A program made the translations under genes and the position numbers. The notes beneath the pieces were generated by a model, which saw only the letters and a list, made by a program, of their open reading frames with translations, searched no databases and was not told where the DNA came from. A stretch of DNA of 62,495 nucleotides, filler included, from Sphacelaria rigidula (lineage: Eukaryota): assembly GCA_964200075.2 (NCBI GenBank). It is 10 parts of 10 records of this genome, joined end to end, with 100 filler letters (N's around TTAATTAATTAA, not from the genome) between each part and the next. Parts side by side here need not be neighbours in the genome. Positions count along the whole stretch, not along the records: positions 31,301 to 37,459 come from CAXNAA020021863.1; 9 more parts are not named here. One strand, given 5' to 3'. Below are positions 60 through 61,722 of this stretch, one piece after another. The stretch's first letter is position 1, and each line of letters starts with the position of its first letter.

Positions 60-600
60 CCCTGGCCAAGGCCGTAGGAGCGGACCTCCTATGGGGTTCA
101 CGTCGGTTGGCGATGGCGCTATAAAACACACCACTCACTGCGTAAGCTAGGCAACCAGGCTACCGATTGTTTTGCGCGCTTGAGTTTTTTCTTGCGGTAA
201 CTATGATGGTAGTCGAGCTGAATCATGTGGTGCGGGGTGGGAGAACCTCAACTCCGCACGGAGGGGATGATCGTACTACGTAGTGTTTAAATGGTGAGAC
301 ACCCATGAGGCAGTGTATGAGCCGGGGCTGTCTCTGAAAGTAGCCGTACCATAAAATGAAGCAACTTATTGTAGGCTGTCATCCAAATGCAGATAATCAG
401 TACACTTCGGGCCGGACGATCTTAGCAGGATGCAGCTCACCCTTCATGCGACCCGCTGAACACACCACGGCGCTTCGCGCTTGGTGATAGATTGCGAACC
501 TGATCCGGCGAAAACCCGGTGTGATTTGCCCCGGCTTCGTAGAGATACGAGGTCAACGGCCATATGACTATGGCATGCAAGATCACGAGTACATCCCCCA
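60..600 (+). mobile_element. Non-coding retroposon family A (LINE-tail-bearing), near full copy
   Basis: Homologous to 640-797+2285-2560, 4449-4912 (rc), 13860-14415 (rc) and 18781-18838 (rc). Ends ...GATCACGAGTAC followed by a C-rich run. Confidence 0.8.
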
Positions 601-2279: not shown

Positions 2280-2655
2280 AAAGAAGCAGCTTGCCTCTGG
2301 AAGTGGGGAGGGGATACCAGAAAATGAAACAACCAATTCGAGGCTGCCATCCATACCTTCGGGCCGAGCAATCTTAGCAGGATGCAGATAATCCCTCATG
2401 CGACTCGCAGAACACATCACGACGCTTCGCGCTTGGTGATGGATTGCGAGCCTGGTCCCGTGAAAATCCGGCGTGCTCCGTCTCGGTGGTTTTGTATAGA
2501 TGCGAGATCAATGGTCTCATCACTACGGCATGCAAGATCACGAGTATAGCCCCCCTCCCCTCCCCACTGTGGGATGGCTATGGGAAAGCATATTCACCCG
2601 TACAAGTTAGCTGCACCGGACAGGGCATAGGTAGCCAAGCCTCCTTCGACTTGCA

Positions 2656-4448: not shown

Positions 4449-4912
4449 TGTTCTCATGATCCTGCATGTCGTAGTCATATGACCATTGACCTCGCAGCCC
4501 TACAAAGCCGGGACGGAGCACGCTGGATTTTCGCCGGACCATGCTCGCAATAAGTCACCAAGCGCCAAAGGGTCGTGATGTGTCCGTCGAGTCGCAAGAA
4601 GGGTGAGCAGCATCCTACGAAGATTGTTCGGCCCAAAGCGTACTGATTATCTTGCATATGGATGGCAGCCTCCAATGAGTTGCTTCATTTTCGGGTATCC
4701 CCACTTTCAGAGACAGCCACGCGTTCCACACTGCATCATGGGTGTCTCACCATTTCAACACTACGTAATATGACCACCCCCTTCGCGCGGAGTTGAGGTT
4801 TTCCCGCGACGCACAATATAATCTAGCTCGAACACCATCATGGTAACCGCAAATAAAAAAACGCAAGCGCGCGCAAAACAAAAGGGTGTAACCTGGTTGC
4901 CTAGCGTAGGGC
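4449..4912 (-). mobile_element. Family A copy, 5'-truncated, with 12-bp TSD
   Basis: Reverse complement of ~140-595. Flanked by GACGAGAAGGGG (4437-4448) and GAGGAGAAGGGG (4913-4924). Confidence 0.8.
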
Positions 4913-6160: not shown

Positions 6161-6260
6161 NNNNNNNNNNNNNNNNNNNNNNNNNNNNNNNNNNNNNNNN
6201 NNNNTTAATTAATTAANNNNNNNNNNNNNNNNNNNNNNNNNNNNNNNNNNNNNNNNNNNN
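6161..6260. other. Artificial scaffold linker (N44-TTAATTAATTAA-N44)
   Basis: Identical 100-bp linkers also occur at 12421-12520, 18681-18780, 24941-25040, 31201-31300, 37460-37559, 43719-43818, 49978-50077 and 56237-56336. Intervening pieces are 6160 then 6159 bp, which indicates a size-sorted concatenation. TTAATTAATTAA gives stops in all six frames. Confidence 0.98.
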
Positions 6261-13859: not shown

Positions 13860-14415
13860 AGGGGTGTACTCATGATCATGCATGTCATAGTCATGGGGCC
13901 ATTGGCCTCGCATCGCTACAAAGCCGGGACGGAGCACGNNNNNNNNNNCTCATATCACCAAGCGCGAAGCGCCGTGGTCTGTTCGGCGAGTCGCATGAAG
14001 GGTGAGCTACATCCTGCTGAGCTCGTTCGGCCCGAAGCCTACTGGTTACCTTGCATTTGGATGACAGCCTACAATTAGTTGATTTATTATCTGGTATCGC
14101 CACTTCCAGAGACAGTCACGGCTTATACACTGCCTCATGGGTGTCTTACCATGTAAACGCTACGTAGTACGATCATCCCCTTTGTGCGGAGTTGAGGGTC
14201 TCCCACGCCGCACAACATGATCTAGCTCGACTACCATCATGATTACTGCAAAAAAACCCCGCAAGCGCGCAAAATAAATCGGTAACGTGGTTGCCTAGCT
14301 TAGGCAGTGAGTGGCGTGTTTTATAGCGTCATCGCCAACTGACGCCAACCTTATTGGGGGTCCGCCCTTACAAAGCCGGGACGGTGCACGCCGGGTTCTT
14401 GCCGGACCAGGCTGA
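13860..14415 (-). mobile_element. Family A full copy (internal N gap)
   Basis: Reverse complement of 60-600. The 5' end CAGCCTGGTCCGGC..GTCCCGGCTTTGTA is repeated near the 3' end, and both flanks are C-rich. Confidence 0.8.
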
Positions 14416-14439
14416 TGACTCGGGGGGGGGAAGGGGGGG

Positions 14440-14597
14440 AGGAGCGTACTCGTTTGTTGCTTGCCTTGGTCGTTTAAACATTGACCACGCATCCCTTTCG
14501 AGACGGAGCACCGAGGAGGAGAGGGGGGGCGTACTCATTTGTTGCCTGCCTTGGTCATTTGACCATTGACCACGCATCACTTTCCGGACGGAGGACA
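14440..14597 (-). mobile_element. Dimer of ~70-nt RTEX-LINE 3' tail
   Basis: Two tandem copies of GTGCTCCGTCTCGAAAGGGATGCGTGGTCAATGGTCAAACGACTAAGGCAAGCAACAAATGAGTACG-like sequence, each followed by a C-rich run. Confidence 0.85.
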
Positions 14598-17607: not shown

Positions 17608-19784
17608 CGCTTGGGCTGCGAGCTTCACCTTGGAACAGTTTCACCGACTGACGGTCCAGGGATATCTACGGGTTTCCAGTGGGCAAAGGGATGGTTTTCG
17701 ATGGGGAGTGGGTGCCTGTCCCTTGAACAATCGCAAAAACCCATGAACTCGACCATGTCTGCCTGGAAATTTCAGAAGTTTCAAGTCGGGTATGAAACCC
17801 CAAGATATGGAAGTGGTCATTCTTGACTACTTTGATTGGTCAGTCCGGCCACGTTGTTCCCATCCAGAACAGCGAAATAACAATTGCCTCGCGGCCTGGC
17901 AGTATTTGACCACTTGAGAAACGACCACTTCACAGAAAAACACTAGCAAAAGAGGTGCTTCTTGCTTTGTGGCTAGTGTATGTGCCATGCCTTGCCCCTC
18001 GTGCGTTTGTGAAGATAGCTGCTGCACACTGTAGTATCGTTGAGCAACACCAAGCAGAGACGGTAGTAGCATGCAGTAGCCTGTTCGGTGAAGTGCGATG
18101 ACACACGCATTGCTTCATACCACTGTATTCAGTCGCCGTCATCGACAACAAACGTTTTCGTGTACTATACAGAAGCAGCAGCAGCAGCAGCAGCAGCAGT
18201 GCAGACAGTGACGGAGTACACTCATGACGACACATGGGACAGGCGTGCAAGATTGAAACAAGCTTGAGGTGTGCCAGCACGGCAAAAATGAAACAAAATG
18301 AACGCAAACAAGTAAATTAACAAAAGCGAGGATGTACTTTTATATCGCAGCAGGCAGGGGATGGCTGTCAGCGTATACCACCTCCAATGCATGAAAGCAT
18401 GTACCCCATGGGCACAGCTCGTCGAAGAAAGAAACTCACGGTGTACTTGTACGCACTTGACATGTGGCTAAAACAGGTCAGCGGTTCTCCAACTCTAATT
18501 CCTTTACGGATGCTCAACTTCCATATCTTCATGTAAAAGGCCGTTTCGTTTTTTGGAAAAACAGCTGATTTGAATCCCAAGTATGGCGTAGTCGATCTCG
18601 GTTGACCAGTGGGGTGTGTGGAGGGGGAGGGGGGGGGGGGGGGGGCGGTTTAGTGGGTTGGGGGTAGGTGTGGAGGTAGGNNNNNNNNNNNNNNNNNNNN
18701 NNNNNNNNNNNNNNNNNNNNNNNNTTAATTAATTAANNNNNNNNNNNNNNNNNNNNNNNNNNNNNNNNNNNNNNNNNNNNGGGTCCGCCCCTACAAAGCC
18801 GGGACGGAGCACGCCGGGTTCTCGCCGGACCAGGCTGAATTGGGGGGGGGGGGATCTCAAGGTCCCCAAGTTTACTTCTTTTCATCTTGCCCTCACATTC
18901 TCCATACAATTTTTTGAAGTGCAACTCTCAAATCTGAGGTGATAACCCGCCTGCCAACCACAGATCCGCTTCTGGGGCTGGCCCAGCTCGTCGCGTTTCC
19001 GATCGCAAACATGCGGCGGAAAGAGATGAAGGGTAACTTGACTCTCATCTTGCGGGCCACCACGCCAGATACCACCCAACACGAGATACAATAATTTCTA
19101 GGTCAATTTGTTTTTCGAGGATGACCCTTGGGAACCTTCATACGCATTGAAATATTTTCGGAATAAAAGTGCAAGTGCACTCTCCGGTCGTCATGTGTGG
19201 CCTCGCTCATTCTCAAAAGAATTAATCCGCAATTTGTAAAACCCTGATTGTCCACACACTTCTTTTCTTTGATACCTCAGAATTTTGCGGAGTTTTCGGA
19301 CTCTGCGTTCAGACTTCTCCGAAGTAGCGACTTGATTTTTTCTCCGAAGCTTCATTTCTAGAAAAGTCATAAAAATTCGGACTAAAACGCAACACTTTGG
19401 GGGACTGCTCTGTGCGTACACCGTGGCGCTCGCAAGCATTCGAGAATCATCAGGTTCCTTGCCGGTCCCGAAATTTTCAGAGATCTCCGAGAAAGCAATG
19501 TCGATAGTAATGGGCCTTAACCCTCACACAGCGAGCGTCGCCTCGGAACAGTTTCACAGGCTGACAGTCCAGAGACATCCGGGGGTTTCGAGCAGGCGCG
19601 CGCGCGCGGGGGGGGGGGGGGGGACAAGGGGTTGGGGGCCTGCTCGTAGAACAGCCGAAGAGTTCCCCAAGTCAACCATGTGTGTTTCGAAATTCCCCAC
19701 GGAAAATTATAAGCCAGGAGCGAGACCGGAGAGGAGCGGAGTGATTATTCGAACCAATCATGGCTATCGAAATGGTCACTTTGT

Positions 19785-22120: not shown

Positions 22121-22204
<84 letters not shown>

Positions 22205-22312
22205 TACACACACACAGACACACAGACACACAGACACACAGACACACAGACACACAGACACACAGACACACAGACACACAGACACACAGACACACAGACA
22301 CACGCACACACA
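22121..22312. repeat. Compound microsatellite (CT)30-(CA)n-(GACACACA)n
   Basis: Direct reading. Confidence 0.97.
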
Positions 22313-24004
22313 CGGCGCGTCTCACTTTACTTGTCTCGCAGGAGTGATCCGCTGCACTTGCAATTTTTTCGCTCGTACGCTCGGACTCAAACAGTGCAAA
22401 ACAATCTGATTCGAACGAATCGATTCGTCGCACTTCTATCTTCGATCAAAAATGAATTTGATAAGGCACGCCCCAAGACACGCCCCAAGACACGCCCAAA
22501 GACGCCCCTTCAAGACTTGCCGAGGTCTTCTCAAAAATTGACCGATCAACAGATCAACTCTCCTCCTCATTATCGAGTTATCAAGCGGGGAAACTCGCTC
22601 CCATCCCTGTGCGATCACGTGCGATACCCTGCATCTTGTTACGGTACATCTTTTCCGCACCGACTACGGTACACCTACATATATATACATGGTACAGTCC
22701 ACGATCGGTAAAGCACTTGAGCGGCGACGTCGAACAACCATTTTTCATAACTTAGCCTGCTTCTCTCTGCATAGCAGTTCATGTAACGGTACTACTGTAA
22801 TGATGCATGACCATCGAATGACCACAGCATGTTTCACTTTGTCGTGATAGATGGCGGTACTAAAAGAAGCTGTGAACTCGTCCAACTCGTCTACACACAA
22901 AAAAAAAGGCAATTAAGATCTAGGAACAAGGGGGCGACCTGCATTCTTTTCCGGAGCGGCACGCGAAGGGGCTCGGGAAGCACAGCAGTATGGGTGCGGG
23001 ATCTGTTTCCGCACATGCTCTTGGTTCAGAGACATGGACAAGCGAAAGAGACGAGTAATAAAACTGGTCGTGTGAAAAGCTAGTCCGGCTTGAATCTTTG
23101 TAATTTTGGCCGCGACGACGTCACCCGTATATCCGTGGCGCTCAGCCTCCCGCGTAGGTTAGCCCATGTTAATGCGCAGCTCCTGTATTATGATTCCTAC
23201 AAATATTATCTAATGTGCGTGGACGTTTACCACGCAGTCATGTAGGATGCAGCTGCGTTTTTTGCCCCGTGCACATGAAACGATTTGTCTACGTATCTCA
23301 TGCATAAACTGCAAACGTTTGACTCGTACGGTACTGTACAGCAACAGAGTATAGGCTGTCCACAGACAGTAATATCCTAAGGTTGCGCGCACACCTGCGA
23401 TACTAAGTGTTGCATGGTTGCTCCTGGTGATTCTCACACGCCACTCCTTCAGCTGATGAGATAGTGGCTAGGCGCGGTATATATTATTTTCCCCTGTGAA
23501 GGTGTGGCTGCACTGCGATGATTGTGTCCGAAAAGGTGTGACTGCATGGGTAGATTGGTGAAGAGACCAAGAGTTTGGAGTGGTGGCACTTTGGTTCATT
23601 TTATACGGGGGCGTTTTCTCAACGCAATTTTGTCCACGCTGAAACGAAACCGCCTGCGAAGGGATACTACTGCTGCTGCTGTTGTACCGCGAGTACGTTT
23701 TACTTCATACCTGTAAATTGAGCTCTCTCATGAGTTGCTGCGCGTGGCACAGCAGGAGCTAATAAACTGTTTCGAGTGCTATTCGTCGACCCCGCCACCA
23801 AAACGCCCAAACCATACAACCGAAAATCCATGCCTTCCATCAAACCCGTTCATCGAAAACCCAAAGCCACCCAAAATACCAACCCCCGCCAAACGTGCGT
23901 GAAAACTTGAGCGACTTCATAGCCGCGTGGTTGGGACACTATTACTATTACCGAGTAAAACTGAAATAAAAAAGTTGCAGCTGTCCGGGCTGTGCTGTAC
24001 TATA

Positions 24005-24218
<214 letters not shown>

Positions 24219-25040
24219 ACTATTGGCTGGCTGTGGACCATGCTCCATGTGGCAGCCTCTCGCAGATAGATGCGCGTACGTATGAAGATTTTGAAACACT
24301 CTTCTTTGTGTCATCCCGTCTACTCCGGACGCCAGTCTACATGATACATACACCACGGTTAATATGTATGTGAGCGCATCAGCCGGGGTCACACAGGAGG
24401 AAGGTCGACACAGAAACATATGTTTTGCTTGCTTCTAGCACACTCCACTTTCCTCGTGCGTTGCCTGCATTCCTTTTTGTAGCGAGAACGGTTCGGCGAT
24501 CCCTTTCCCGCGTCGACCGTGAATTTGAACTTTGTTTAGGCAGGATACAGCATATTTGTACTAGTCTCTCTCCACTGGCGTAATTTGTGTGTGTGTGGGG
24601 TGGGGGGGGGGGGAATGCCAGATAATATAAGAAAATGAGGTCGAAAATAATAATGAAAGGAGTCTCAACCCCGAAACAGTCAGGTAGTTCTAAAGTCGTC
24701 ACAAATGACTTCCATACTCGTATGAACGACCCCATCCACCCCGATCTCCCTGAAACTGCTTTTGGGGGTTGCCCGCCTTCCGTTCCGGTTACGGCGGGTA
24801 TATGGGATAGCACCCTCTTTTCGCATCGATTTCGGACTGAAAATAGGGACGCTTTCAGCCCGAAAAAATGCCAAACTGGCGGGGGTCGGCAGGCACAGAT
24901 TTTTACGCGCAGATCTTTGTTCCGCGGCCAATTTCGAACCNNNNNNNNNNNNNNNNNNNNNNNNNNNNNNNNNNNNNNNNNNNNTTAATTAATTAANNNN
25001 NNNNNNNNNNNNNNNNNNNNNNNNNNNNNNNNNNNNNNNN

Positions 25041-28170: not shown

Positions 28171-28629
28171 GAACCCTTACGCAATAGGTATGGAAGATAG
28201 ATGTATCGTAAGTGGTTCTCCATCTTGACAGAAACGTTTACGTCTAGAGAACTAGCAACTCAACGCTAGATCGATATGCTTCGAACGATATGTATATATC
28301 GTACATGTCGGACATAAAACAGTCATAGCCTGAGACAACAGGGGCAGACTTGCTGAGTGAACGTACAAGTGTGCGCGTCGTGCGTCTGAACATTGAGCGA
28401 GGATGGTGGGCAATATCCACGTCAAGCAGAAAATTCGACCGCACTTTGGTGACCAAACTCAAGTTCTTGTCTTCCCCTCCCTGCGGTTCGATCCTTCGGA
28501 AGAAAGGAAGAGTTCATAGCTCTTAGCCGTCGAACACGCTTGAACAAAGACCTCGACTTTTGTTGTTATAATTTTTGCTCATCTCCCCAATCGATCCATA
28601 GTTCGTTCCCAGCCACTCGAACCCACTCA

Positions 28630-29620
28630 AGAGAACATGCAGATAAAGAGGTTGCCAGCTATAGTTGTGTAGTTGATAGGGATGTATGGAAGAAAAGTAC
28701 AAAGGGTCAGGCTGGAGTCAGGTGGGATAAAAAAGTCGAGAAAAGATAGAAGGGGATAAATGGGAACCAAGACGAAGTACTGTCCATAGACGAAGGCGCG
28801 GGGTACAAGGCAAAAAAAGTAAAAGATATGACAAATATAGCGGGAAAAGGAGCGCTCAGACGCAAAGTAGACGAGAAAGAACACCTGGATATACGGGTGG
28901 TTGAGAGAGGGTGAAATGCGTGAAAGGACCGCGTGCTTAGAGGACCGCATCGGAATTTGAACACTCCCATGGTCAGGGTTAGGGTTAGGGTTAGGGTTAG
29001 GGTTGGGGTTATGGTCAGGGGCGTGGTACCTGCACGGACTGGCCCGATCGGTTTAGAAAAAGATCGATCCTGCGGTGTTCTGAACTGCGGCGCGGTCCTC
29101 TTAGCACGCGGTCCTCTCACGCATTACAGAGGGGATAGGGATAAAAGCATATCTGCATGGCCCAATGGATGCTGCGAAAAATATGAAACTGTAATTTCGA
29201 GAAGAAATAGATTTACCAGTCGTCGAAAGGAGGAGGGAGTAGATGGACAGAACGGCCTCTTTGGCAAAGATATAGAGAACAGGAGTCATAAGTGGCAGGA
29301 TGTGAACCATACAATGAGGAACGGGACGTGCTAGAGAGGGAAATGCGGGACGTAAACAAAGGTGGCATGAAATCCCTTGATGCATTAGACAAGAGGGAGA
29401 AAACGATGACTATACCTGGAGATGGTGGCCACAGACGGCGAAAGAGGGCGGGGATAAAGTATGTAAAAGGTTCTTGTGTGATGTATGGAAGAAACGTAGT
29501 GAGCGCCAGAATGTTGTAGGTGGCTCTATCAGAAGTAGGAATGGTGCTCCGTCTCGAAAGGGATGCGTGGTCAATGGTCAAACGACTAAAGCAAGCAACA
29601 AATGAGCACACCCCCCCTGC
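28630..29620 (+). mobile_element. RTEX-like LINE, 5'-truncated degenerate copy
   Basis: Homologous to the rc of 59635-60415. Ends AATGAGCAC + C-rich run; interrupted by the MITE at 28912-29128. Confidence 0.85.
28912..29128. mobile_element. TTAGGG-bearing MITE, copy 2 (Ginger-like TG..CA ends, 5-bp TSD)
   Basis: TIR TG(A/T)AATGCGTGA.AGGACCGCGTGCT. TSD GAGGG at 28907-28911 and 29129-29133. The empty site is visible in the LINE copy near 60145. Confidence 0.85.
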
Positions 29621-31300: not shown

Positions 31301-31403
31301 GTACTCTCGCATATTTTCATAAGTTGTGTTTTGGATGAGATGAAGGGCTCCTAACAATTCTAACCTCAGAAAATATTTGTGTACCCCTACCGTAGCATCA
31401 CTC
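31301..31403. mobile_element. Sola-like MITE, right end
   Basis: Near-identical to 37150-37253. Confidence 0.75.
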
Positions 31404-31421
31404 GTCTCCTTGATCCCTTAC

Positions 31422-31705
31422 CGGATTACTCTCCGGCGGAAGCGATAGATAGCCAAGATGTTCTGCGTCAGTTTGGCGTCCTTCAAAAAGGCGAATATCA
31501 CTCTCACTCCCACGTGTCGGCGCCGCTTCCAGCTCTCCGCTGCTTTTGGAATCCACTTTTTCAAGAGGCGTACTTTGTTGTTTGAACTCTCGCTGCCAAC
31601 AACTCCCCCTTCAGCCCCAGTGTCTCCTGTAAAGGAGCGTCCGTGCCTTTTTCTGATGAAGCGCTGAACTTTTATGGCACTCACCTCCAGTTCGGCTAAC
31701 GTTCC
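31422..31705 (-). CDS. Same gene, exon h with IQ-like motif AIKVQRFIRKR; the gene continues past the scaffold end
   Basis: CATAG| acceptor, CG|GTAAGG donor, 284 nt open. Confidence 0.7.
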
Positions 31706-32239
31706 CTATGTTTTGAGTCGACGGCAGGTGGTGCAGTCAGTCGTCGAGTGTATACCTACCAAGTGTGTGCGTGTGCGGTATATTGCCCAGCTCGCGATCC
31801 CGAAACGTAACAAGCACGTGTCACGGACTATTTGCCCTCCTTTCGAGGTCTGGTCGCTGAATCAACACGACAAAAGTGTCGGCCGGTGCTCGGCCGAACG
31901 TAGACGAGAACGGCATACAGAGCAGGAGTATGTCGTCGTGGCCTGGTGACGACAATCTTCTGAACATGCCACATAGAATAATACCACAAAAGCCACATGT
32001 ACTAGTCTACATATCTGTGGGAGGTCTTTCTGCCAGTTCTTGTGTGCGTGTCTATGTCTATGCATCCGCATGAACACTGGTAGTAGAAGAGCACACGCTA
32101 GAAACTGGCATCAACCCTGCGGCCAGCTTGCACGAATGCTTGAGACATCAACACTGCGGAGAGATTTCAGCACTAGACTCAAACCACATGAGAGCTGTCC
32201 CGAAAAATGAAAAACGGAGACGTCTGCCCTGTTTTTTGC

Positions 32240-32281
<42 letters not shown>

Positions 32282-32976
32282 GTTTTTTAGCTTTCTATCT
32301 TCTTTTTTATGTCTGGGGTGTTTTTGGTTTGTTCGGCGAGNNNNNNNNNNGTCAGCCCCCGAAAAAAAAAAAACGGCACCTTCTCCCTTTTTTTTTGCCC
32401 CCCCCCCCCCCCCCCCCAACGTTTGCCGTTTTGTTTCGCTAATCTGGACATTTGCACGATTGTTTTCCGTTGGCGCTGTTCGTTTTGAAAAGTGGCACCC
32501 TCAGGAAGTCAACACTACTGCTTGTTTCAGTCAGTTTGGAGGCACACGCAGCCTCGATACTGCATACAGCACGACGGAATTGCATGATGCGATGTAGCTG
32601 TTGTTGGGCGTCGTCATGATGACGCTGGTTTCTTGCACCGGGGGCATGACACCATGTGATGAGGTAAGGAATGTAAGACATGAATGCGAAAGTGTCTAGC
32701 AAGAAACTGCCGATTTCCCATTTTTTCAGGTGGCAAATAGAAAGCGGATTGTATTTGCCAGACGTCAAGAACGGGCGTAGCTCATTAGTTGAAATCCATG
32801 GAAGACCAGATGCTTGCATTACGTGAAGTGACGACGACCAGGGCGAAGATGGAGCGGTGTGCGTGTGCTGCATGCCAAATTCAATATCCTGACTTCTATC
32901 CTTCCCCTTCCCTCATGCTTCCATCACACCTCCCCCGTCCTTTGGTTTTCTCCTTACAGAGTACCCTCTCCGTCAC

Positions 32977-33138
32977 CTTTTCCCCGTCGCCGCCGCTCAT
33001 AGCTGCAGCGAGTTTATCCAACATCCATTTTCGACTTTTCCAAAATCCTCTCCACTCTACGGCAGAATTCACCGCCACCACCGCCGTCAGGAAAAACCGT
33101 TGTCTCCGAGTAAGGTCTTCGGACTGCTGCTGGGTTCG
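32977..33138 (-). CDS. Same gene, exon g (RTQQQSEDL...GDGEK)
   Basis: TTTCAG| acceptor, AAG|GTGACG donor, 162 nt, phase 0 to 0. Confidence 0.65.
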
Positions 33139-33434
33139 CTGAAACAAAGGCAGATGCCCCGACGCAAAGAGGGCGCGAGGGAGGAGGAGCGAGAGGTTTA
33201 AGGGAAGAAATGACACTTGAAGGTGGTGAAATAAGCTACCTGTATTGAGTCCGTCGATCGACACGGGGGATTGTCGTTGTCTTTCTTTCACCCCATGTTG
33301 GGAATGTTGAAAGATACTCCCTTCGCACATGTCGCTGTGCGTTCATCAATGGACGGCGTCGCATCTTGTTGTCATATTAGAGCCAGGCGGTTGGATCCAA
33401 ACTTTCCCACTTTATATTTCCCCTCCAAGAGGAA

Positions 33435-33584
33435 GTGCTCCGTCTCGAAAGGGATGCGTGGTCAATGGTCAAACGACTAAGGCAAGCAACAAATGAGTAC
33501 GCCCCCCCTCCAAGTGCTCCGTCTCGAAAGGGATGCGTGGTCAATGGTCACACGACTAAGGCAAGCAACAAATGAGTACGCCCC
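33435..33584 (+). mobile_element. Intronic dimer of the ~70-nt RTEX tail with 15-bp TSD
   Basis: TSD CCCCTCCAAGAGGAA at 33420-33434 and 33585-33599. The two units are almost identical. Confidence 0.9.
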
Positions 33585-33676
33585 CCCCTCCAAGAGGAAA
33601 TGTTGCCAACGCTAAACTTTCCCGCCCTGCCCCCTCGAACGATCGATCCAGGCAGAATAACCTCCTCGTGGCTCAC

Positions 33677-33812
33677 CGCCTCCGCCAGGCTGGGTCCTTC
33701 GCGCTTTTTCCGCGCTGCTTCAGCGATTGCGTCTCTGCGCCGATCCATGCGCCTCTTCCTCTCTCGATTCGCTTCACGCCGTCGCTGCGCCCGAGTGGCT
33801 AATTCCTCTCGC
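33677..33812 (-). CDS. Same gene, exon f (charged helix REELATRAQRRREANRERKRR...)
   Basis: CTCAG| acceptor, GCG|GTGAGC donor, 136 nt, phase 2 to 0. Confidence 0.7.
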
Positions 33813-34257
33813 CTGAGGATAGTGTGACGGCACAGTTTCGTGTCCTTCTCCCTTCATGTCAGACTCTTGTCCACTTTGACCGATATATTGTATTCCACGT
33901 CTGTGTAGTGCGTGGGTCTTTGAGGACGGAGGCAAGGGGGATGCCCGAGTCAAAATCCGGAGTACTATCGAACCATACATGCCACGCATTCGGACTCAAG
34001 AGAAGTGTTTATGCCCATGCCTTCCGACACAGAGACATGCAAGTAGCAAGTGGCGGTACCGGAACATACCGTGGTGAAGGTTCGACCAACACGATTCGCT
34101 GGAGTCCTGTCGACAATGTGATTTCGTGTTATGTGCGGTATTTGCGTGCGCAGCACACGTGTGCACTCGTACACACTCCGTCACATAAGTATGTTCTCGG
34201 CCATGTCTTTATGCCTTGAGGGAGTCAACTATATCCCTTCCCGTCTCTGGCACTCAC

Positions 34258-34355
34258 CGAACCACAGAAAATTGCGTATCTTCCAACACGCACATCGCGC
34301 GGTTACGCACGATGAGCTCTTTCGCAGGCTGCCTTGCTCTGTGCCAAGCAGCTGC
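34258..34355 (-). CDS. Same gene, exon e (AAAWHRARQPAKELIVRNR...)
   Basis: AACAG| acceptor, CG|GTGAGT donor, 98 nt, phase 0 to 2. Confidence 0.65.
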
Positions 34356-34704
34356 CTGTTTACGAAACGGGGTTTTGTGGTGCTGCTGACGTTAGCGCAG
34401 GACTTGAGCGAGGAGAACGCATACCATGCATAGAGGCGGCGCGTTCGGAATGATTTTCCACTTCAGTTTATTGGCAATATAGAGAAGACAATTGATGAGG
34501 GTATGTGCTGTGGGATCAATGGTCAGAACAGTGAGATGCGGGGAACGCAACACCAGAGCTAGACCTCCCTAAAGAGCTGTTTGCAAATAGCCAACTGGTG
34601 CCCGAAGAAGATACAAAAACGCTGTGCGATAAACACTGCCGCTACTGAGGTTTCGAGTAGGTGAATGGCTTCGACTTGGAGGCAATTCACACGAGATGTA
34701 TCAC

Positions 34705-34852
34705 CTGAGCCTTTGCGAGAAACTGGGCAACAGCAGTGTTGTCACCCCGAAGATCCGAGATACGGGCCTCCAAGGCAGGACAGAGACCAAGGATGGGATC
34801 ACGCACACCTGTAGACGGGACGTGGATGCCAACCGCCAGTGCCCGCGACTTC
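34705..34852 (-). CDS. Same gene, exon d
   Basis: CGTAG| acceptor (alternative at 34910), CAG|GTGATA donor, 148 nt, phase 2 to 0. Confidence 0.55.
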
Positions 34853-35137
34853 CTACGTTGATAGATACCCAAGACGTCGCAAACGTGGTGTGCGGAAACT
34901 GGGTATGGCTCTGTAATTAGGACGGAAGAACGATCAAAGTGTAGCACGACCAGCTACGATCAGCACTCGAGTCGTGCTCACATGGACAGCCGAAAAATGT
35001 GCGTAGAATGTATACGTTCACACAGGTGGCCGGACGAATTTGCGACGTCCGAGGCGCTGGTAAAATCGTCAGAGGCGTACACATTGGGCAGCTTCAGGAC
35101 AACGCGTTGGTACGTCGCGTACACGCTGTCAACGTAC

Positions 35138-35194
35138 CAGCACGTGGAGCGTTGCAGTATCCACCTCAAGGGCCGCTCTAGTAGCCTGTACAAC
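35138..35194 (-). CDS. Same gene, exon c (LYRLLERPLRWILQRSTCW)
   Basis: CATAG| acceptor, TG|GTACGT donor, 57 nt, phase 2 to 2. Confidence 0.45.
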
Positions 35195-35463
35195 CTATGC
35201 ACGGTGTGAAAACGCTATTTTGTGCTTACATCGAACGCCGATGTGAGACTGAGAGTACTATCCACGGGACAATATGCATGGCCAGAACCGAAATTTGGAC
35301 ATGAGAACATGAGCGGAATCGGCCCAACGCCAGGGTTTTAAGTGCAAAATCTTGCGTTCGGCGGCGTCAATTTTGCTCAATTGACCGGCAACTGGCTCGC
35401 CGGACCCACCTCTTCCCCAACTTTGATCTCGTTTACAGAAAACATATTTTTATTTTCCGTTAC

Positions 35464-35761
35464 CTTCGCCGACGGACACGATCGTTCCCCGCAGATGTTC
35501 CTCGAACAGCACACCAAGGATGTCCGCGGGGGGATTCAACGGAAGGTCCTTCATTAGTAGAAACGATTCCAGTGACCGTGAAAGGGCGTGCAGTCTTCAG
35601 CTTCGCGTGCAGCGGTGGTTGTGCTCTGTCCTTGCTGTTCAGGGTACTGCCGTCGACAGGAGGAGCGCACGGTAGTCTCGGGGGTATGTTTGCCTTGTCG
35701 CGATCAGCTGTCCATGATGTGTGCTTCTCACGGTCCCTCTCCAGCCTCGTAATCTGAGTTT
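35464..35761 (-). CDS. Same gene, exon b
   Basis: GACAG| acceptor, AG|GTAACG donor, 298 nt open, phase 1 to 2. Confidence 0.5.
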
Positions 35762-35947
35762 CTGTCGATCGAGCCGCGCAGCAGGGCATCCTTGGAGACC
35801 ACCGAGTATACGCGGTTATTGTTTGGTAAAGTGACGTTGGTTCGGTGGTTTCTCAGAAGTTTACGGTGTGGCGTGCAAAGCTGTGTTGTTGCAAGGTGAT
35901 GCCCCCCCCGCCCCCCCCCCCTCCAATCCCTTTCTCAACACACGAAC

Positions 35948-36128
35948 CTGCTCCTTGTTCAGTCGCAGCTGCTGCGAATCCATCCTGTGCTTGGGTATTT
36001 CTCATACGCTGTCTACGTAGAAGCGCGACAAAGGGACGTAGGTCCTCTGCAAGCCCATCGCCAGTGTGCGCTGACTCTACGCTTGTCTCGTCCGCATCCA
36101 CAGTGTCGTCCTTTCGCTGACCCAGAGC
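35948..36128 (-). CDS. IQ-motif/coiled-coil protein fragment, exon a (ALGQRKDD...EQGA)
   Basis: CCCAG| acceptor, G|GTTCGT donor, 181 nt, phase 0 to 1. Confidence 0.55.
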
Positions 36129-36996
36129 CTGGGCGAGTCAATGGATGAATCAACCTATTATGCCGAAGGGTTGGCCATCACATCATGACTCCTGGCAAAT
36201 TCTTGCCCTATCTATGACGACCAAAGCGGCCACGTCTACAAAGTAAGCTCAAACTACTGGCGCCCCGTCTCGCAATGATGGATATACTGCACACACACAG
36301 TCCAGGTTTTCGAAAGATACGCAAGCTGGTTCAGGGTGAGTGCCCAACTTTTCCCCCACAAGATACATAACGCAAAACTGACCCGATCGAAGCACAGTTG
36401 GTATCAGAGTGACCCCCACGAGCAAGCGAACAGTGTGGCGTGACCAGATTTTTCTTGCGTTCTTTGCCGTGGCGCTGGTACGAGGTGAAATATTAATTGA
36501 GGAATCAGGGGCCTTCGAACTGTTCTGAAATTTAAAAAGTGAATTTCCGACACAGTTTCAGTTTATACCCAATCTCATCACGAATCAAACCTTAACAACT
36601 GCCATCAGCTAGGGAATCTAACGCAGAATACACACTCAAGAATGATTTGTATGAGATCGAGCTTATACCCCAGAGCGTGGTATTCACGCGATGTGGAGTT
36701 TTGGCGTCGTCTGATTTCTACTGGTTTTATTCACCACAGACCCAGGAAGCCTCTTAACGTCTTCCCTTGTGACAGTCGTAGGAAAGTCCCAATTATCCTC
36801 AGACTTGGTAGTTTGATAGATATAGGTGTTGCAAATAGAAGAAAGAAAGTCGTTGAAGAATATTTCAAAGTTCATCCGCTCTATGCCGGCTTCCGGAGGT
36901 CCCAGCGTGAATATTGTCTCAAAACTAATATTTGACTCATCCCGAGGTAGTCCAAGGGACGTTTGTACAGCGATGTGTAACCCGAAAAGCTGACCC

Positions 36997-37253
36997 GAGC
37001 AATGCGACGGTAGGGGTGCACCTTTTTCGCGAAATTTTGTTTGGTTTAGGGGCTCCCAACAATCCCAGACGCACAAAAATATGGATCAGGGCATCCCCGT
37101 TTGCAGATTTATCCATGATATCCCCAGCACATTGGAATGGTAATCCTGGCGTGCTTTAGCATATTTTCATAAGTCGCGTTTTGGATGAGACAAAGGGCTC
37201 CTAACAATTCTAACCTCAGAAAATATTTGTGTACTCCTACCGTAGCATCACTC
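36997..37253. mobile_element. Sola2-like MITE (GAG..CTC ends, 4-bp TSD)
   Basis: TIR GAG(TG/CA)ATGC(T/G)ACGGTAGG; TSD ACCC at 36993-36996 and 37254-37257. Confidence 0.8.
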
Positions 37254-37559
37254 ACCCCAAACGGTAGATGCCAGCGTAAACACACGAGAAAAAGGTTCGT
37301 AGCATACGGTAATCGAGTAATTCGGGGGATTCGAGGTGCCCTTGTACAGCTTAATGCACACGCACGCAATTTCTGACGCCCGTATTTTGAGATGTTAGAC
37401 GCTGAAATTTGCACAGGAGTGCTCTGGGATATAAACTCGTATGGAGTTTTTTTTTTCTANNNNNNNNNNNNNNNNNNNNNNNNNNNNNNNNNNNNNNNNN
37501 NNNTTAATTAATTAANNNNNNNNNNNNNNNNNNNNNNNNNNNNNNNNNNNNNNNNNNNN

Positions 37560-40170: not shown

Positions 40171-40429
40171 CAGTGGACACTTTCTACGATAGCCCCCCCC
40201 CCAAAAAGTGCCTGCTTTGAGGAGGCACAATCTTCCCGTAAATCGAAACGGAAAAGGCCGAGCACAACGGGCAGCTTGGGACCCCCACGCTTGGGTTCGT
40301 TCTCGCCGATGTCGCGCATATGAGGCGCTTCATGTAGCCTGAACCCAAACATCAGGCGCTGTATGACCATTTTTTTCGTGACACTTTTGGGCTGTTTTTT
40401 TTGGGGGGGGGTATCGTAGAAAGTGTCAG
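40171..40429. mobile_element. Tc1/mariner-like MITE
   Basis: TA|CAGTGGACACTTTCTACGATA ... TATCGTAGAAAGTGTCAG|TA. An empty site with a single TA is present in the paralogue at ~8105-8125. Confidence 0.85.
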
Positions 40430-49890: not shown

Positions 49891-52719
49891 TCCTCGGCGG
49901 TCGATGTCGCGGGTGGTTTTTTTTTTTTTTTTGTTTTGTTGGGGGTGGGAGGTCCGTTTGGAGATGCTGGTAGTTTTNNNNNNNNNNNNNNNNNNNNNNN
50001 NNNNNNNNNNNNNNNNNNNNNTTAATTAATTAANNNNNNNNNNNNNNNNNNNNNNNNNNNNNNNNNNNNNNNNNNNNTTCGAGCAACACATGGCCCAAAA
50101 TACCTCCCCCCCACCCCCCTATCGTAGGATGACTCTTCAGCAGTCATGCCAACAATAGCATCAACTGTAGTGTTCAAGGCCACAGCATGCGCGACTGTGA
50201 CAGTCCATGCATCAATGCCTTCGATCTCATGAACCCTAAATTGCAGGACAATGAACCCGCGTGGCGCCGATGGCAAAAACGCATGCGCGACTATCGTCCA
50301 CCAAATCGAAATTTCCGCAAAAATTTGAACCAACGTGGCAACTCAAGCTCTAATCGCGGTCGCCAACACAACAACAATCCCGGAAGCCCTCGCCAGAACG
50401 ACCACAATTCTCGCGACAACAAACGTTCCGCTGATAGACACCACCGGACGGGACCGACACAAACTTCCAATTCCAACACCAGAAACCCTGGTACCTTCAC
50501 TACGGATCGCCTAGATCCATGACGTGCCGACGCCGGCGTTCTCCGGTCTTCCACGCCGTCGATAGCACGAGCGAAGACTTTTTCAACACAGCCCGTGGAG
50601 TCCGTGTCAAAAACTGCTCACTCGACTCTCCCGGAACTATCCAGGAGCGTAACTGACGGCCGTTCATATCGACCCCCGTCTCGAACCTCTACACAATTTT
50701 CAACACCGCCTGCCGAGCCCGCGACTAAGGGAGTCGGCCCGGCTCTCCCGGCACTATGCAGGAGTGCAGCTGACGGCCGTTCAAATCAACCCCCGTCTTC
50801 GTCCCTCCACACACCGCGTAACAGTTGTGTCACCCCGCGACTCAGACCTACACCCGGCACTGAACTTGGTCCTTCAGTACCGAATATATGTCTGAGGTGT
50901 GGGAAGACCAACCGCCAGTCCCTGAGGCAACGGCTTCCCTCAGCGTCCGCACGTACAGGTAGCACCAAGCCCTTTTCAGCTGACCCAAGTGTTGCTGATT
51001 TGAACCTGACCACATTGGATCATGTAATTCCCAATCAGTTCAATCGGGCTTCTTCCCCGCGATTTTCAAGACGCACGGACCTACCTTCGGCCCGTTTTAC
51101 TAACGACCGTCCCAACATATCTTCGGCTATTCCCCAACAGCCAAGCTTGCCTACGGAAAGCAGCCCACAAGTTTCGCTCCGTCATGCCCCCATGCTGACC
51201 CCATCCACGCAACTGGACGCAGTTGTGGTTTTATCCCCAAATGTTTTGGAAGTTCCCCGACCTTTGTCACGGCGAAAGAGAAAGCCCCGTAAGCATGCCG
51301 CCAAGGACGCGCGCGCATCATGACGTACACCTCTTTCGAACGGAAATCCTCGACCTCAATCTCTCCAAAATGCGAAGACTTTGAGCTCGACGGCTCTATC
51401 AAGTATCCCGGAAGAAAACGAATCACATGATTCTGACGGCACTACTTCTTCAATCGACGGCTCCAGCCCCGCACATTCTGGATCCCCCTTTGACGGTGAT
51501 CCCTGTCAACCAAAGACGATCATTTACGAAATCGCCGATGACCGTGCCACACCTGGAAATAATATACCGTCCACCCCCTTCTCCGGTGAGACATCTGACC
51601 CACCGGTGGATCATCCGCCGTGCGTTTTTGCTGTCAGCCCCACTGATTCTGACCAGTTTACCTTGCCGGAACACGGGCCGGATCTTGTCGGCGGAAAAGT
51701 GTCTGTAGATCCGGCCACTTGCACTACTCGCGTTGCGATCCATGCCGGTCCGAACGTTATCACGCATACGAAATGCGTATCCTTCTTGGACAGCGGCATT
51801 TATTCGAGAATCAACATGGGAACACATGAAACAGACTGGCGCTGCTTGTGAAACCACCACCAAACCTCGAGTGTGGGGGTGGTTTTGGTGATTCTGCCGC
51901 ACCGCTGACGACACGTAAATCCGCACACCTCAGTGTGCAATTCTTTCACAACACGATTCGATCTGCCAGCCTGACAGTCTGGGCATACTTTGTCCCCGAC
52001 AGCACAATGCATCACGCCATATTATTGGGCAGATATAGCTATATACGGTTTAATAAATGAACCTAATGCACGCTGCCACCACTAACGCCACATTCCACGC
52101 CGCGTGGAGAATTCAACCGCGAGCACTTTGGTACTCTCCACGGCGGCCTGGCTTATCACAAAAATCCTCAAGCAACCGGAGCTGCGTACCACCCACGATA
52201 TAACGGTAGTGTGGGTATTACACTCTCCGACGACCCCCAACTTCTTGAAGTTGCACTAGTTCGCCGAAATGGCATGCCAGCACTCAAGGGCCATTATCTT
52301 GTCGAAATGCTACCCCGTATTGGCGCACCAGCCGACACAGAACATTTTGTGTCGGCGAGATAACACCTCCCTCTTACGGGCCATGCTATCTTGGAACCCG
52401 GCGATGTTTTAGGAATCACCGCTGCTCCCCTGATGCACACCCCACTCGAGACGTGCGTCACAGAGCCTGCCGCGCCAAACACCTCATCTCCGGCGGAGTC
52501 AGTTCATTGTGTCGATGAACCCTATTTCGATCTCGCCTCTGCGACTCCACCCCATGTCCACACCGTGGATCCTGTCCAGTCAAATTCCGATCCTCCTCCT
52601 GAAGTGCTTCAACGCTTATCACCAAATTCTCGGAATAGTTTCTTGCACATGTGGAACCAACTGCCGCCACACATGCGCGACATCAATTTTGGCCTTCATG
52701 GGCCCGGCTGGGAGCCGGC

Positions 52720-54171
52720 CGTCATCTAAGAACTCAGTGATGCCCTGCTACAGTACCAAGATCGATATCCCCGATCCAAGACGGATCTTGGGCATTGCAA
52801 AACACTGCCCTTTGAGGTTACCCTTTAGCCTGGTGTCTCGACGATTTCTTCTCGGCCATATCGTACCAACCCAATCCTTACCAAGAAAGTTAACGCCATC
52901 TTGGATGCGTATTTGGGAGCGGGACTAATACAACATTCCTCCTCTCCTTGGGCCTCGTCACTTGTGGTCGTCCCCCCAAAAGGATGAAAACATACGCATA
53001 ACCGTGAATTATCAACGGTTGAACCACATCACTGTAGTCGGTAAACTTCCAATTCCCCGCATTGATGAAGTCTCCGACTCCTTGGGCGAAGGGAAAATAT
53101 TCAGCACCTTCGACCTCGCTTCTGGATTTTTTCAGAATGCTTTACACCCTGACACAGTCCCACTGACGGCTTTTTGTACCTCGTCCGGACTTTATGAGTG
53201 GCTTCGAATGGCACAAGGCGCCGCCACTGCCCCGGGATGCTTTCAACGCTTAGTGCAACGCGTCACCGAGGGCCTCGAGCACATCACCATGTACTTAGAT
53301 GACGCTCTCGCTTTCAATGCCTCACCTATTGCCTATTGCACATATACGCACCCTACGAGGATTTCTCTCTCGCCTACGCACGCACGATTTGAAACTGTCT
53401 CCATCCAAAGCTCACCTTGGCGCGACTGACTTGGATTTCTTGGGGCATTCCATTTCGCCAGCAGGCGTGCATCCGGATACAAACAAAATCAAGGCGATGA
53501 CTGATTTTCCGATGCCAACTAACATTTCTCAACTTCGCTCATTGTTGGGTGGACTATCCTACTACCGCATATTTTTGCCGAAGTTATCGAAACGGATTCG
53601 CGCTCTTACTGAGCTACTCAAGAAAGGAGCCGTGTTTTCTTTCACCACAAAAATGGAGGGTATCACCCGCGAATTACTCAAGACACTTACCGAAAAGCCC
53701 GTACTTTGCTTTCCTGATTGGGAGGCAGTACAAGGTGGCTCCCGCCTTTTCCAACTCCATAATGATGCCAGCACAAATGGATTTGGCGGAGTTTTGAACC
53801 AACCTCAGGTTGATGGCTCTGTCCGACCCATCCTTTATATCAGCCGCGCTACCCTGCCCAATGAGGCCAATTGGAGCCCGCTAGAACTGGAAGGCGGAGT
53901 AATCACTTGTGCCATTAAGCACCTTCGACAGTATCTGTTTCACGTGCCCTTCGAGATATATACGGATTACGGAGCATTTGAACAACTCGCCAAGGTTGGT
54001 GAACACAACCCTCGTGTACAACGATGGTTGGAGTTTCTAACAGCATACCAGTATACCATTAAGCATCGTCCCGGCAAAACCAACGGGAACGCGGATCTTC
54101 TTTCCCGCCTACCTCTGCCGCCTACGGCCGCAGATTCCAGCCCGGCTTGCCCTTTAACGGAACCCGATTAA
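52720..54171 (+). pseudogene. pol: Gypsy reverse transcriptase-RNase H
   Basis: SPW..LVVV, RITVNYQRLN, LPIPRID, FDLASGFFQ, YLDD, FLGHSIS, LRSLLGGLSYYR, DASTNGFG, ELE, RVQRW, NADLLSR. Confidence 0.93.
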
Positions 54172-59225: not shown

Positions 59226-59634
59226 TTATCAACCCTTCTTTGATGGTGTGCAACCCTATCCTGGGCAAAAATGCTTGTCGGTTGGCTTGAAAAACGCTTG
59301 AAGAGGACTCAACCCCGGGATATGTCAGCGTTGTGGAGGTGGAGGTGTAGCGTTTGAATAGGGAGGGGTGTCACAAAAACCCTTGGACATCGAGCGTCGC
59401 CTCGGGACATTTTCATAGGCCGACACCCCGGAGGTTTCCGCTAAGCGAAGGCACAGCAGCATGCAGCAGACTGTGTTCCGTGAGAGCGATGGCACACGAA
59501 TGTATATTGCCGTGATATCCGGCGAAGACATACAGCACGCATTCTGACTCTGTACTTACGTAACCACTACGAAAGAAGGAAGTAAGCGTAATTATTCGGG
59601 ATGCTAAACGGAGGGGGGGGGGGGGGGAGGGGGC

Positions 59635-61647
59635 GTACTTGCTTGTTGCTTGCCTTAGCCGTTTGACCATTGACCACGCATTTCTTTCGAGACAGAGCAC
59701 CGCTCCTACACCCAATATAACCACTTTCAACATTCCGGCACTCACTACGTTTCTCCCATACATTACACAAATCCTTTTACATATCTTATCCCCGTCCTGT
59801 TTCGCCGTCTGTGGCCACCATCCATCTCCTAGTATAGCCATCGTTTTCTCCCTACTGTCTAATGCATCAAACGATTTCATGCCACCTTCATTCACGTCCC
59901 GCATTCCCCCCCCCTGCACGTCCCGTTCCTCCTCGTAAAGTATAGTTCACATTCTGCCACTTGATGACTTCTGCTCTCTATTGCTTTTCCACAGGGGCGG
60001 TTCTAAGCATCTGCTTCCTCCTCCACACGACTACTGGTATATCTCCTTCATCTTTCTGGCAGGTCCAGGTCCCCCACCCGAAATCGCAGTTTCAATGTTT
60101 TCGCCGCGTCCATCGGGCCATGTAGATGTGTTTTCATCCCGATCCCCTCGCTCAACCCCCCGTATATCTTCAGGTGTTCTTCCTCGTCTACTTTGCGTCT
60201 CAGCGCTCTTTTTCCCTTTATTTCTGTCATGTCCCTTATTGTTGTCTTGTACCCCGCGCCTTCACCTATGGACAGTATTTCGTCTTGGTTTCCTTTTATC
60301 TCCTTCCATACTCTCTCGAGTTCTCTATCCCACCGTATGCCAGCCTGCCCCTTCGTATTTTTCTTCCATACAGCCCTATCAACGATAGCTGGCAATCTCT
60401 TCCTCTGCATGTTCTTTACGCTATATTGTCAACTCAATTTCCTCATGTCTCTGTTGATTTGAAGTGAATACATCCCAACTCTGCTCTCAATTCTGTATTA
60501 CTCGTTGTTCTCGAGCATCCCCAAGTATCTTCTTAGCTGCTGCCATCTGTATAGTTTCCAACGTTTTCGCCAATTTCGCGTTCCCCTTCCATACTTCTCC
60601 TGCATATTCCAGCTTTGGTACGATCACGTTCGTCAGGGTACATATCTTGATCCTAGTGTCTAGATGCGAGTCTCTGAGGACCACGTCCATCCTTTCCATC
60701 TGTGCCTTACCATTTTCTATTACTTTGTTCATGTGTGCATCCCAACTACAGTTTCTTGAGATTTCTACACCACGGTATGTAAACTGGTCTGCGATCGGCA
60801 CTTCCTCTTCTTCCCACTTCCATTTAAACTTTACCGGATGTTTCTCATCTTCGTTACATACGAGTACCGCGCATGTGTTGACGTTCGCTGTTACTCTCCA
60901 TTTCCTAGTGTATTCCGAAGCCATTTCTATTTGTTTTTGTAATCCTTCTGGTGTTCCTAGAATCCCCACAAAATCATCTGCGAACATCAATTCTGATAAC
61001 GCATTTTCACCCACCTTGACTCCTTGAGTTTCTGCTTCTATCACGAATATCAGATCATCAATAAACACCTTAGAAGAAGGTGGGTGATAACGTACATCCT
61101 TGTGCAACTAACTCCTTGTAATGTATCAAAACACTTCGATATTTCCTCGTCTAGCATCATAGCACTTTTGGCACATTGTGTCATATTCTTTATCCTTCTC
61201 CACATCTCCGCTCTGATTCCAGTTTCCCACAACTTTTTCCACAGCTCATTTCTCCATACTGTGTCAAAAGCCTTTTGCACGTCCAGAAAGAAACAGTACA
61301 CCGTCAGCCCGGTGTCTTTGCTACCTCGAATAATCCCACCTAGTGTGTACACACGGTCTACGCGAGTACGGTTTGGCCTGAAACCTGCTTGTCCCTCGCT
61401 GATTTTCTCGTCCTTTTCTAGCACCGTTCCTACTCCATCATTCAGAATCTTCCAGATGTTTTCCCTGCCGTGCTCAGTGGCGGTATCCCTCTGTAGTTCC
61501 CTGGATCAGCCTTGTCTCCTTTTTTGAAGAGGTTGACAACTACTCCTTCTCTCCACCTCTAGGGTGTCTACTCATTTTTCCATATCCAGTTGTACAGAAT
61601 ATTGAATGAATTTCTGAAGTACGGAGGGGAAAGGACTGATTACCATG
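59635..61647 (-). mobile_element. RTEX-like LINE, 5'-truncated, with short 5' inversion
   Basis: WREGVVVNLFKKGD..NYRGI, GQAGFRPNR, FLDVQKAFDTV, MFADD, LKLRFRVGDLDLPER, a C-terminal PCG..ES.SH..AEC.LY knuckle, and a 3' tail ending AGTACG + poly(C). Confidence 0.88.
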
Positions 61648-61722
61648 CGTACTCTTCAACTTTGCATCCTACCATCGCCCCCTCTTTCTCCCATGACTCT
61701 TGAATTCTTGCTATATCCCGGG

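Follow-up and report, generated by a model that had tools for sequence, protein, structure and literature searches.

A probable double insertion of an oligo(C)-tailed LINE 3' end in one short C-run target of Sphacelaria rigidula, with proposed priming on a G-run

Results

Layout of the double insertion

The window, i.e. the whole stretch of DNA that was analysed (62,495 nucleotides from Sphacelaria rigidula), consists of ten pieces of ~6.16 kb separated by linkers of the form N44-TTAATTAATTAA-N44 (9 blocks, including 6161-6260 and 12421-12520). The repeats spaced by ~6,260 bp correspond to these linkers, and a biological origin was rejected for them. Positions 33420-33599, in piece 6 (31301-37459), harbor two tail-only copies of a LINE 3' end, units X and Y, bracketed by a 15-bp target-site duplication (TSD) that is identical at 15 of 15 positions (33420-33434 and 33585-33599; Table 1). 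TRF analysis of the X/Y region yields a period of 79 bp, with 2.0 copies and 97% matches. The C-run counts 4 residues in the untouched 5' TSD copy and has 7 after X and 8 after Y, and the spacer between both units is composed of a C-run and the target prefix, (CCCC)TCCAA, without GAGGAA.

Table 1. Coordinates of the C-tailed retroposon features in the window, with the basis of each assignment.
Feature	Position	Strand	Basis or remark
5' TSD copy, CCCCTCCAAGAGGAA, 4 C	33420..33434	+	exact match to 33585-33599
Unit X, tail-only, 67 nt: last 21 codons, TGA and GTACG of the family-A ORF	33435..33501	+	tblastn to P0003 residues 1339-1360
Spacer, C7 (33502-33508) and TCCAA (33509-33513)	33502..33513	+	C-tail of X and first 9 target bases
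Unit Y, tail-only, 67 nt	33514..33580	+	1 mismatch to X (98.5%), start base as in X
C8 (33581-33588) and TCCAAGAGGAA (33589-33599)	33581..33599	+	4 extra C, then 3' TSD copy 33585-33599
Family A tails	33435-33501, 33514-33580, 29544-29609	+	sequence comparison
Family A tails	14445-14511, 14530-14596, 59634-59700	-	sequence comparison
Family B 3' ends	597, 2554	+	sequence comparison
Family B 3' ends	4449, 13866	-	sequence comparison
Family-A LINE fragment without its 5' part, with C-terminal ORF, tail and C7	28629..29617	+	P0003 residues 1113-1360 (piece 5)
Decayed family-A LINE fragment, RT and C-terminal domain	59613..61717	-	P0003 residues 711-1360 and 197-221 (piece 10)
Tail-only units of family A, second head-to-tail pair (14530-14596, 14445-14511), spacer C7 and TCTCCTCCTCG	14445..14596	-	
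Family-B non-autonomous element, ~550 bp including a 10-N gap	13866..14414	-	3' end GAGTACA and CCCCTCCCCCC
5'-truncated family-B element	4449..4912	-	between TSD copies 4437-4448 and 4913-4924
Family-B element	74..597	+	3' end GAGTACA and TCCCCC; without clean TSD
Partial family-B copy	2292..2555	+	3' end GAGTATAG and C6
Family-B head fragment 18781-18837, cut by piece end; upstream AATT and C12 (18842-18853)	18781..18853	-	

Two related families of C-tailed 3' ends

A preliminary description of this DNA had reported ten GAGTAC-like 3' ends on five unlinked scaffolds, tailed by a C-run and never by poly(A). All ten were located, spread over pieces 1, 3, 5, 6 and 10, and the copies found outside the window agree with them (4/4). 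The ten ends split into two related families, A (n=6) and B (n=4). Family A ends in ...GGCAAGCAACAAATGAGTACG, with six copies of 66-67 nt that display 89.6-100% identity to the query copy, and a 20-mer of its tail allowing up to 3 mismatches finds 6 matches in the window vs 0 in 100 shuffles. Family B ends in ...GCATGCAAGATCA(C/T)GAGTACA, with four copies of 78-88% identity, and the tails of both families have in common a 39-nt core of 82% identity.

Behind each of the ten window ends, directly or 1-2 bases on, at least 4 C are found. The runs are C4, C5, C6, C7 (three times), C8, CCCCTCCCCCC, CTCCTCCCCCCC and CCCCCTC15; they vary in length from copy to copy and give way to unrelated sequence. 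An A-run or poly(A) stands behind 0 of 14 tails (10 in the window and 4 in metagenome contigs), the reverse of what is expected for a poly(A)-dependent, L1-type element. The data hence support that these elements are non-LTR retroposons with a terminal oligo(C) of variable length and no poly(A).

Copies outside the window

When the A tail was searched as a degenerate pattern, marine metagenome contigs yielded four loci, all of them LINE 3' ends lacking a 5' boundary, which read ...ATGA(G/C)TACG followed by C8, C11, C10 or CCTCCCCCCC; the same pattern found 0 loci in a viral contig collection. Contigs of four public runs from three studies were mapped to 33100-33900, three of the runs being probably DNA and one (X6) guessed to be RNA. 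The contigs that match the tail number 75,971, 27,433, 57,109 and 2,221 per run, and the unique flanks are at single-copy depth (61.5 in X1). Behind 33508, 33511 and 33588, the three DNA-type sets show loose ends whose consensus opens with 10-21 C (146-509 contigs each, among the best 24 of 807 loose-end entries). In X6, tail and C-run lie inside longer contigs and are uninformative on the element 3' ends. Since C-runs also lie behind the outside ends and open the loose ends, the C-run is terminal, variable and general. The preliminary description had named as a refuting case a C-run of fixed position within the 3' UTR, with a different tail behind it; the variable run behind the tails of both the outside copies and the contig sets rules this out.

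The contig sets also contain junctions from a tail and its C-run to the start of a further tail. The joint 33588 to 33435 occurs in 13, 3 and 13 contigs (X1, X3 and X4), the joint 33507 to 33435 in 7 (X1) and 3 (X4), and further joints present short spacers such as CCTCCA or GCCCCCTTCTTCG and 5' truncation at 33438, 33440, 33448 or 33459. These varied truncation points and spacers favour serial retroposition into resident C-tails over amplification of a fixed unit. An opposite-strand joint between 33507 and 33588, C-run against G-run (tail to tail), is present in 6 contigs each of X1 and X4, and may reflect convergent insertions or a homopolymer assembly artefact. Concerning the locus itself, no empty or one-unit allele of 33420-33599 was seen in the contigs of X1, X3 and X4, which is no proof of fixation: the flank contigs of these three sets enter the tail from both sides and stop there, and none spans or skips the insert.

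The tail encodes the C terminus of a LINE protein

The RT ORF at 61050-61505 (-) yields 13 longer protein matches, in which unnamed ENA entries display 71-74% identity and Ectocarpus entries 41-60%. Among named entries, the best matches to the window RT, and likewise to the full-length proteins related to it, come from Ectocarpus, and the putative RTEX label given beforehand agrees with the published Ectocarpus curation. The full-length relatives P0003, P0005, P0011 and P0013, which measure 1255-1509 aa, each combine Exo_endo_phos with RVT_1 in a single polypeptide, and a C-terminal CPCG...H...C motif is found in both P0003 (1360 aa) and P0005 (1328 aa). The C terminus of the latter two, ...NGAPSRKGCVVNGQMTKASNK, is the translation of the 67-nt tail; therefore the conserved tail is coding, and the 3' UTR amounts to GTACG plus (C)n. 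The stop codon is the TGA within AAATGAGTACG, 5 nt ahead of the C-run. ORF 29381-29602 matches the final 61 residues of P0003 with 75% identity and has its stop at the corresponding position, a 346-aa frame (L001) is open to the family-A stop, and a C-terminal peptide motif, APS..G.VVNG, is common to the window element and P0008. A second, distinct LINE RT is located at 56839-57873 (-), with 26-30% identity to the family-A protein; no 3' end or tail was recognised for it.

In the window, family A is represented by fragments only, namely those of pieces 10 and 5 and four tail-only units. The tail of the piece-10 fragment (59634-59700, -) is followed by CCCCCT and C15 (59613-59627). The piece-5 fragment is split by an unrelated insert of ~216 bp (28912-29127) with inverted ends (GTGAAAGGACCGCGTGCTTAGAGGACCGC ... 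its complement), which contains telomere-like (GGTTAG)n and resembles a small TIR element. The second pair of tail-only units leads into a C-rich run and then a B element, and the region 13866-14596 (-) reads as a same-orientation chain of tail unit, tail unit and full B, each behind the preceding C-rich run.

Family B is a non-coding element of ~550 bp. In the copy that ends this chain, the head, CAGCCTGG, is located 7 nt behind a C9 run. The B head repeats 48 nt of the element's own 3' region with 85-92% identity (14366-14413 and 18789-18836, both -) and may derive, by this resemblance, from the B tail region. A search of the whole window with Rfam found no family at gathering score, and no Pol III-type head (tRNA, 5S, 7SL) for either B or the 67-nt units. 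Family B and the 67-nt units therefore show no Pol III-derived head of the kind by which a SINE is strictly defined.

Target sites and 5' flanks

Clean TSDs are available for three insertions only, and every one of them starts with C4-5. The B copy at 4449-4912 is flanked by GA(C/G)GAGAAGGGG at 4437-4448 and 4913-4924, i.e. CCCCTTCTC(C/G)TC in element sense, conserved at 11/12 positions; this pattern has exactly 2 matches in the window vs a shuffle mean of 0.03. The insertion brought no gain of C, with 5 C in the 5' TSD copy but 4 where the 3' end meets its flank. The remaining 7 of the 10 tails have an ambiguous TSD, or a 5' end that is absent or cannot be placed with certainty, and a search by eye around 74-597, 2292-2555, 28629-29617, 59613-61717 and the pair at 14445-14596 found no convincing TSD.

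A CCCC is present within 20 nt upstream of 7/7 sharply defined 5' ends vs 5.5% of background positions (6,720/122,578, both strands), a count that leaves out the uncertain 5' ends at 74, 2292, ~28629 and ~61717. As Y, the unit at 14511 and the B head at 14414 each follow immediately on the C-tail of a neighbouring copy, these seven represent four independent cases. In the independent 5' flanks, T follows the C-run in 3/5, and the target is hence best called a C-run (a G-run on the nicked strand) rather than the word CCCCT. The two CCCCT-starting TSDs proposed in the preliminary description are thus both real and do begin with a C-run, but the exact word is not general.

G/C tracts and other features of the window

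Runs of at least 10 nt are more numerous for G/C (18) than for A/T (11) in these 61 kb of ~49% GC. An A or B tail precedes only 1 of the 18 long G/C runs (59613-59627), and 1 more stands before a B head (18842-18853). The elements exploit C-runs and are able to extend them, as at 33420-33599, but the window does not reveal them as the main source of the tracts; the case for this family as the source of the long G/C tracts of the genome is weak.

Several of these runs belong to other structures. Those at 40193 and 40403 were considered as retroposon tails and rejected, being the two ends of an inverted-repeat insert: compared with a related repeat of piece 2, the insert at 40171-40426 has the inverted ends ...CTACGATA(G) plus C10 and G9 plus TATCGTAG..., so that some C/G runs belong to inverted-repeat elements and not to tails. 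Likewise, the runs at 62096 and 62245 were rejected as tails because they are internal to a tandem repeat. Runs of C36 (32241-32276) and C20 (32398-32417) lie 157 bp apart across an N gap, each behind a T-run and a similar AAAACGG...CCCT motif. At 9433-9464 (-) a GAGTAC word is found between two C-runs (C11, GGCTTGAGTACCTT, C7), perhaps a tail that was inserted into a C-run after extreme truncation. Other features of the window are an LTR-retrotransposon pol at 50523-55856 (+) with RVT_1, RT_RNaseH and rve in the Gypsy-type order, spread over several frames, a 9-bp tandem array of ~30 copies at 23960-24253, and, at 22141-22336, a compound microsatellite of the form (CT)n(CA)n(CACAGACA)n.

Probable order of the insertions and proposed mechanism

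By the arithmetic of the junctions, the spacer at 33502-33513 would be the 5' TSD copy of a second insertion. The simplest reading is that X was inserted first, with a 15-bp TSD, and that the junction it left at its 3' side then received Y, this time with a TSD of 9 bp. This order follows from the spacer, which holds the target prefix without GAGGAA, a layout that no other order yields. Insertion of Y into the left TSD copy was rejected, as was a 9-bp event preceding the 15-bp event, since in either case GAGGAA would stand in the spacer.

A mechanism that fits these junctions can be proposed from the sequence. The endonuclease would nick the bottom strand just 3' of a G-run (GGGG^AAAT at 33420-33599 and GGGGG^AAGG at the B copy), whose 3' end would pair with the oligo(C) of the element RNA and prime reverse transcription, the register of this pairing deciding the number of C at the junction. 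A top-strand cut 9-15 bp downstream would then produce a TSD that begins with the C-run. As an equal or longer C-run would be left behind each copy, the site could be hit again, resulting in head-to-tail clusters. B elements and the 67-nt units would share the LINE machinery through the tail core of ~40 nt and the C-run. Since polyadenylation is excluded as the source of the tail, the C-tail would be copied from the C-run of the parent element or made by slippage.

We therefore read 33420-33599, with a probability of roughly 70%, as the result of two insertions, one after the other, of the very 3' terminus of a LINE of the Ectocarpus RTE-X type, with a single ORF for an AP-type endonuclease and RT, in one short C-run target, through priming of the C-tail on a G-run.

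The same junctions bear on the possibility that the endonuclease alone picks the target, in which case the C-run would be target DNA present beforehand, the RNA would have no C-tail and no pairing of tail and primer would take place. The B copy at 4449-4912, which gained no C beyond its TSD, is what this predicts, as are the C-runs that flank many genome-wide copies on both sides and the wording '(C)n termini/TSD' in the Ectocarpus table (PMC12477816). The increase from 4 C to 7 and 8 at 33420-33599 is harder to accommodate, since 3-4 C per insertion would not come from the target unless slippage occurred later, and the '(C)n 3'' is given as part of the curated RTEX-1 consensus in that table (PMC12477816). 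On balance we regard selection by the endonuclease alone as unlikely.

It could also be thought that the pair arose in a single event, the RT switching template from one tail RNA, at its 5' end, to the C-tail of a second, or that it was duplicated later through unequal crossing-over of a 79-bp unit. X and Y have a common start base and a single mismatch in 67 positions, TRF detects the 79-bp period with 97% matches, and longer tail-(C)n-tail arrays do occur in the genome. A template jump, however, would leave no target bases, yet the TCCAA of the spacer corresponds to target positions 5-9; a plain duplication of unit and TSD would carry all 15 target bases, whereas the spacer has 9; and clustered copies elsewhere show differing truncation points and spacers. 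An origin by a single event or a later duplication is quite improbable. That the polymerase makes the C-run at integration, by non-templated addition or by slippage on one or a few terminal C instead of copying a long inherited RNA tail, is in line with run lengths from 4 to >15 C among the copies and with the slippage model published for the (TGTAA)n tail of UnaL2 (PMC3747384), but this would be a variant of the main model, indistinguishable here from a templated tail and no alternative to priming on a G-run, and is given very little weight.

Fixed start and fold of the 67-nt unit

Returning to the reading as two insertions primed on a G-run, the tail-only units have a further common trait. 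Three of the four in the window share one start base with a large class genome-wide, and before 33436 the loose ends consist of C-runs in 241, 218 and 232 contigs (X1, X3 and X4; among the matches listed). Random 5' truncation alone does not explain this common start. GUGCUC at the unit start is able to pair with GAGUAC at its end, but the predicted fold of the 67-nt unit (MFE -19 kcal/mol, z = -0.78) is no better than those of shuffled sequences. In an alignment of 10 sequences of the unit, 96% of the cells are paired with 0 compensatory pairs, and the score does not exceed that of shuffles, the sequences being too alike to be telling. Nor does Rfam match any ribozyme or other described RNA in the window that might define the constant start of the unit.

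A broader proposal can be made only tentatively, and we lean against it at present: the 67-nt coding tail plus (C)n would be mobile as a unit in its own right, a micro-retroposon that ranks with the smallest elements dependent on a LINE and whose fixed start comes from a defined RNA or a programmed RT stop. Each insertion would remake and lengthen its own landing site, leading to head-to-tail pile-up, minisatellite-like arrays and longer C/G homopolymers across brown-alga genomes.

Discussion

The locus at 33420-33599 preserves, in natural sequence and with clear junctions, the way in which a LINE whose homopolymer tail is not of A selects its target and restores it. Should the pairing model be correct, the rule known from L1, under which the tail and a homopolymer at the nick pair, would reach C/G in a stramenopile lineage, with a tail made without polyadenylation. 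It would offer a possible route to head-to-tail retroposon clusters and to some of the C/G tracts of brown algae. Such tracts break assemblies, and every flanking contig at 33420-33599 ends inside the tail.

The advance is a modest one, and the feature cannot be claimed as new: Ectocarpus RTE-X is in print with a (C)n tail, with C-rich TSDs and with copies in tandem (PMC12477816). In the TE table of that genome, RTEX-1_Ec32 is described as 'single EN-RT ORF; (C)n 3'', with a 'C-rich' TSD and RTEX-4_NV as best blastp match (Genome Biol 2025;26:320, PMC12477816), and RTEX-2_Ec32 as having '(C)n termini/TSD' (PMC12477816). The Ectocarpus elements are assigned there by best BLASTP to RTEX-4_NV and RTEX-1_BF (PMC12477816). 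Two shorter entries accompany them, RTEX-N2_Ec32 of 188 bp and RTEX-N1_Ec32 of 607 bp; the latter is the commonest family of the genome, 'can be present in tandem', has a head whose origin the table leaves open, and ends in 60 bp that are 83% identical to RTEX-1/2 (PMC12477816). RTEX-1 has also been reported for Saccharina. A literature search for a described priming mechanism of C-tailed non-LTR or RTEX elements returned nothing relevant beyond the Ectocarpus paper.

The elements described here are like those of Ectocarpus, as far as the table entries describe the latter, in the single EN-RT ORF, the (C)n 3' end and the C-rich TSDs, as well as in the very high copy number and the tandem occurrence. 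The non-coding partner of ~600 bp with ~60 bp of common 3' end has its counterpart in family B, with ~550 bp and a 39-nt core. As every descriptive trait is on record for Ectocarpus, the present family is a new member of a catalogued family. The kinship is suggested by the common architecture and the protein matches rather than by a base-by-base comparison, and the Ectocarpus entries differ at the protein level, with 41-60% identity vs 71-75% for unnamed ENA proteins. What is added here is that the tail is coding, that it forms a fixed 67-nt unit, and that one target holds a two-step record; the RTEX entries of the table, in the form given there, do not include a stop 5 nt from the C-run, 67-nt units of fixed start or a locus hit twice.

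Among better known systems, the stringent-type LINEs have a 3' end common to their partner elements and simple-repeat tails that vary by slippage (PMC3747384). UnaL2 and UnaSINE1 of eel, with (TGTAA)n, and the I element, with (TAA)n, are alike in the partner-shared 3' end, the simple-repeat tail and the variable number of repeats, which slippage or the choice of register during priming would produce (PMC3747384). UnaL2- and I-type elements differ in that the repeat is here of a single base, C, and the conserved tail is coding instead of 3' UTR; the hairpin of the stringent type is here without covariation support (0 compensatory pairs among alike sequences).

A second comparison is with the microsatellite-targeting R1-clade LINEs, reportedly treated by Kojima and Fujiwara in 2004, which are alike in the simple-repeat target and in a tail that matches the target repeat. 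They differ in belonging to another clade, and in place of a long microsatellite array the target is here a run that may have no more than 4 C, with unique DNA around it. Finally, mammalian L1 nicks at TTTT/AA, and its poly(A) tail pairs with the T-run primer. The resemblance lies in a homopolymer tail complementary to the homopolymer at the nick, a TSD that starts with the tail base, and an insertion that lengthens the homopolymer. The present elements differ from L1 in using C/G and not A/T, in a tail without polyadenylation as its source, and in a 3' sequence shared with a partner, as in the stringent rather than the relaxed type.
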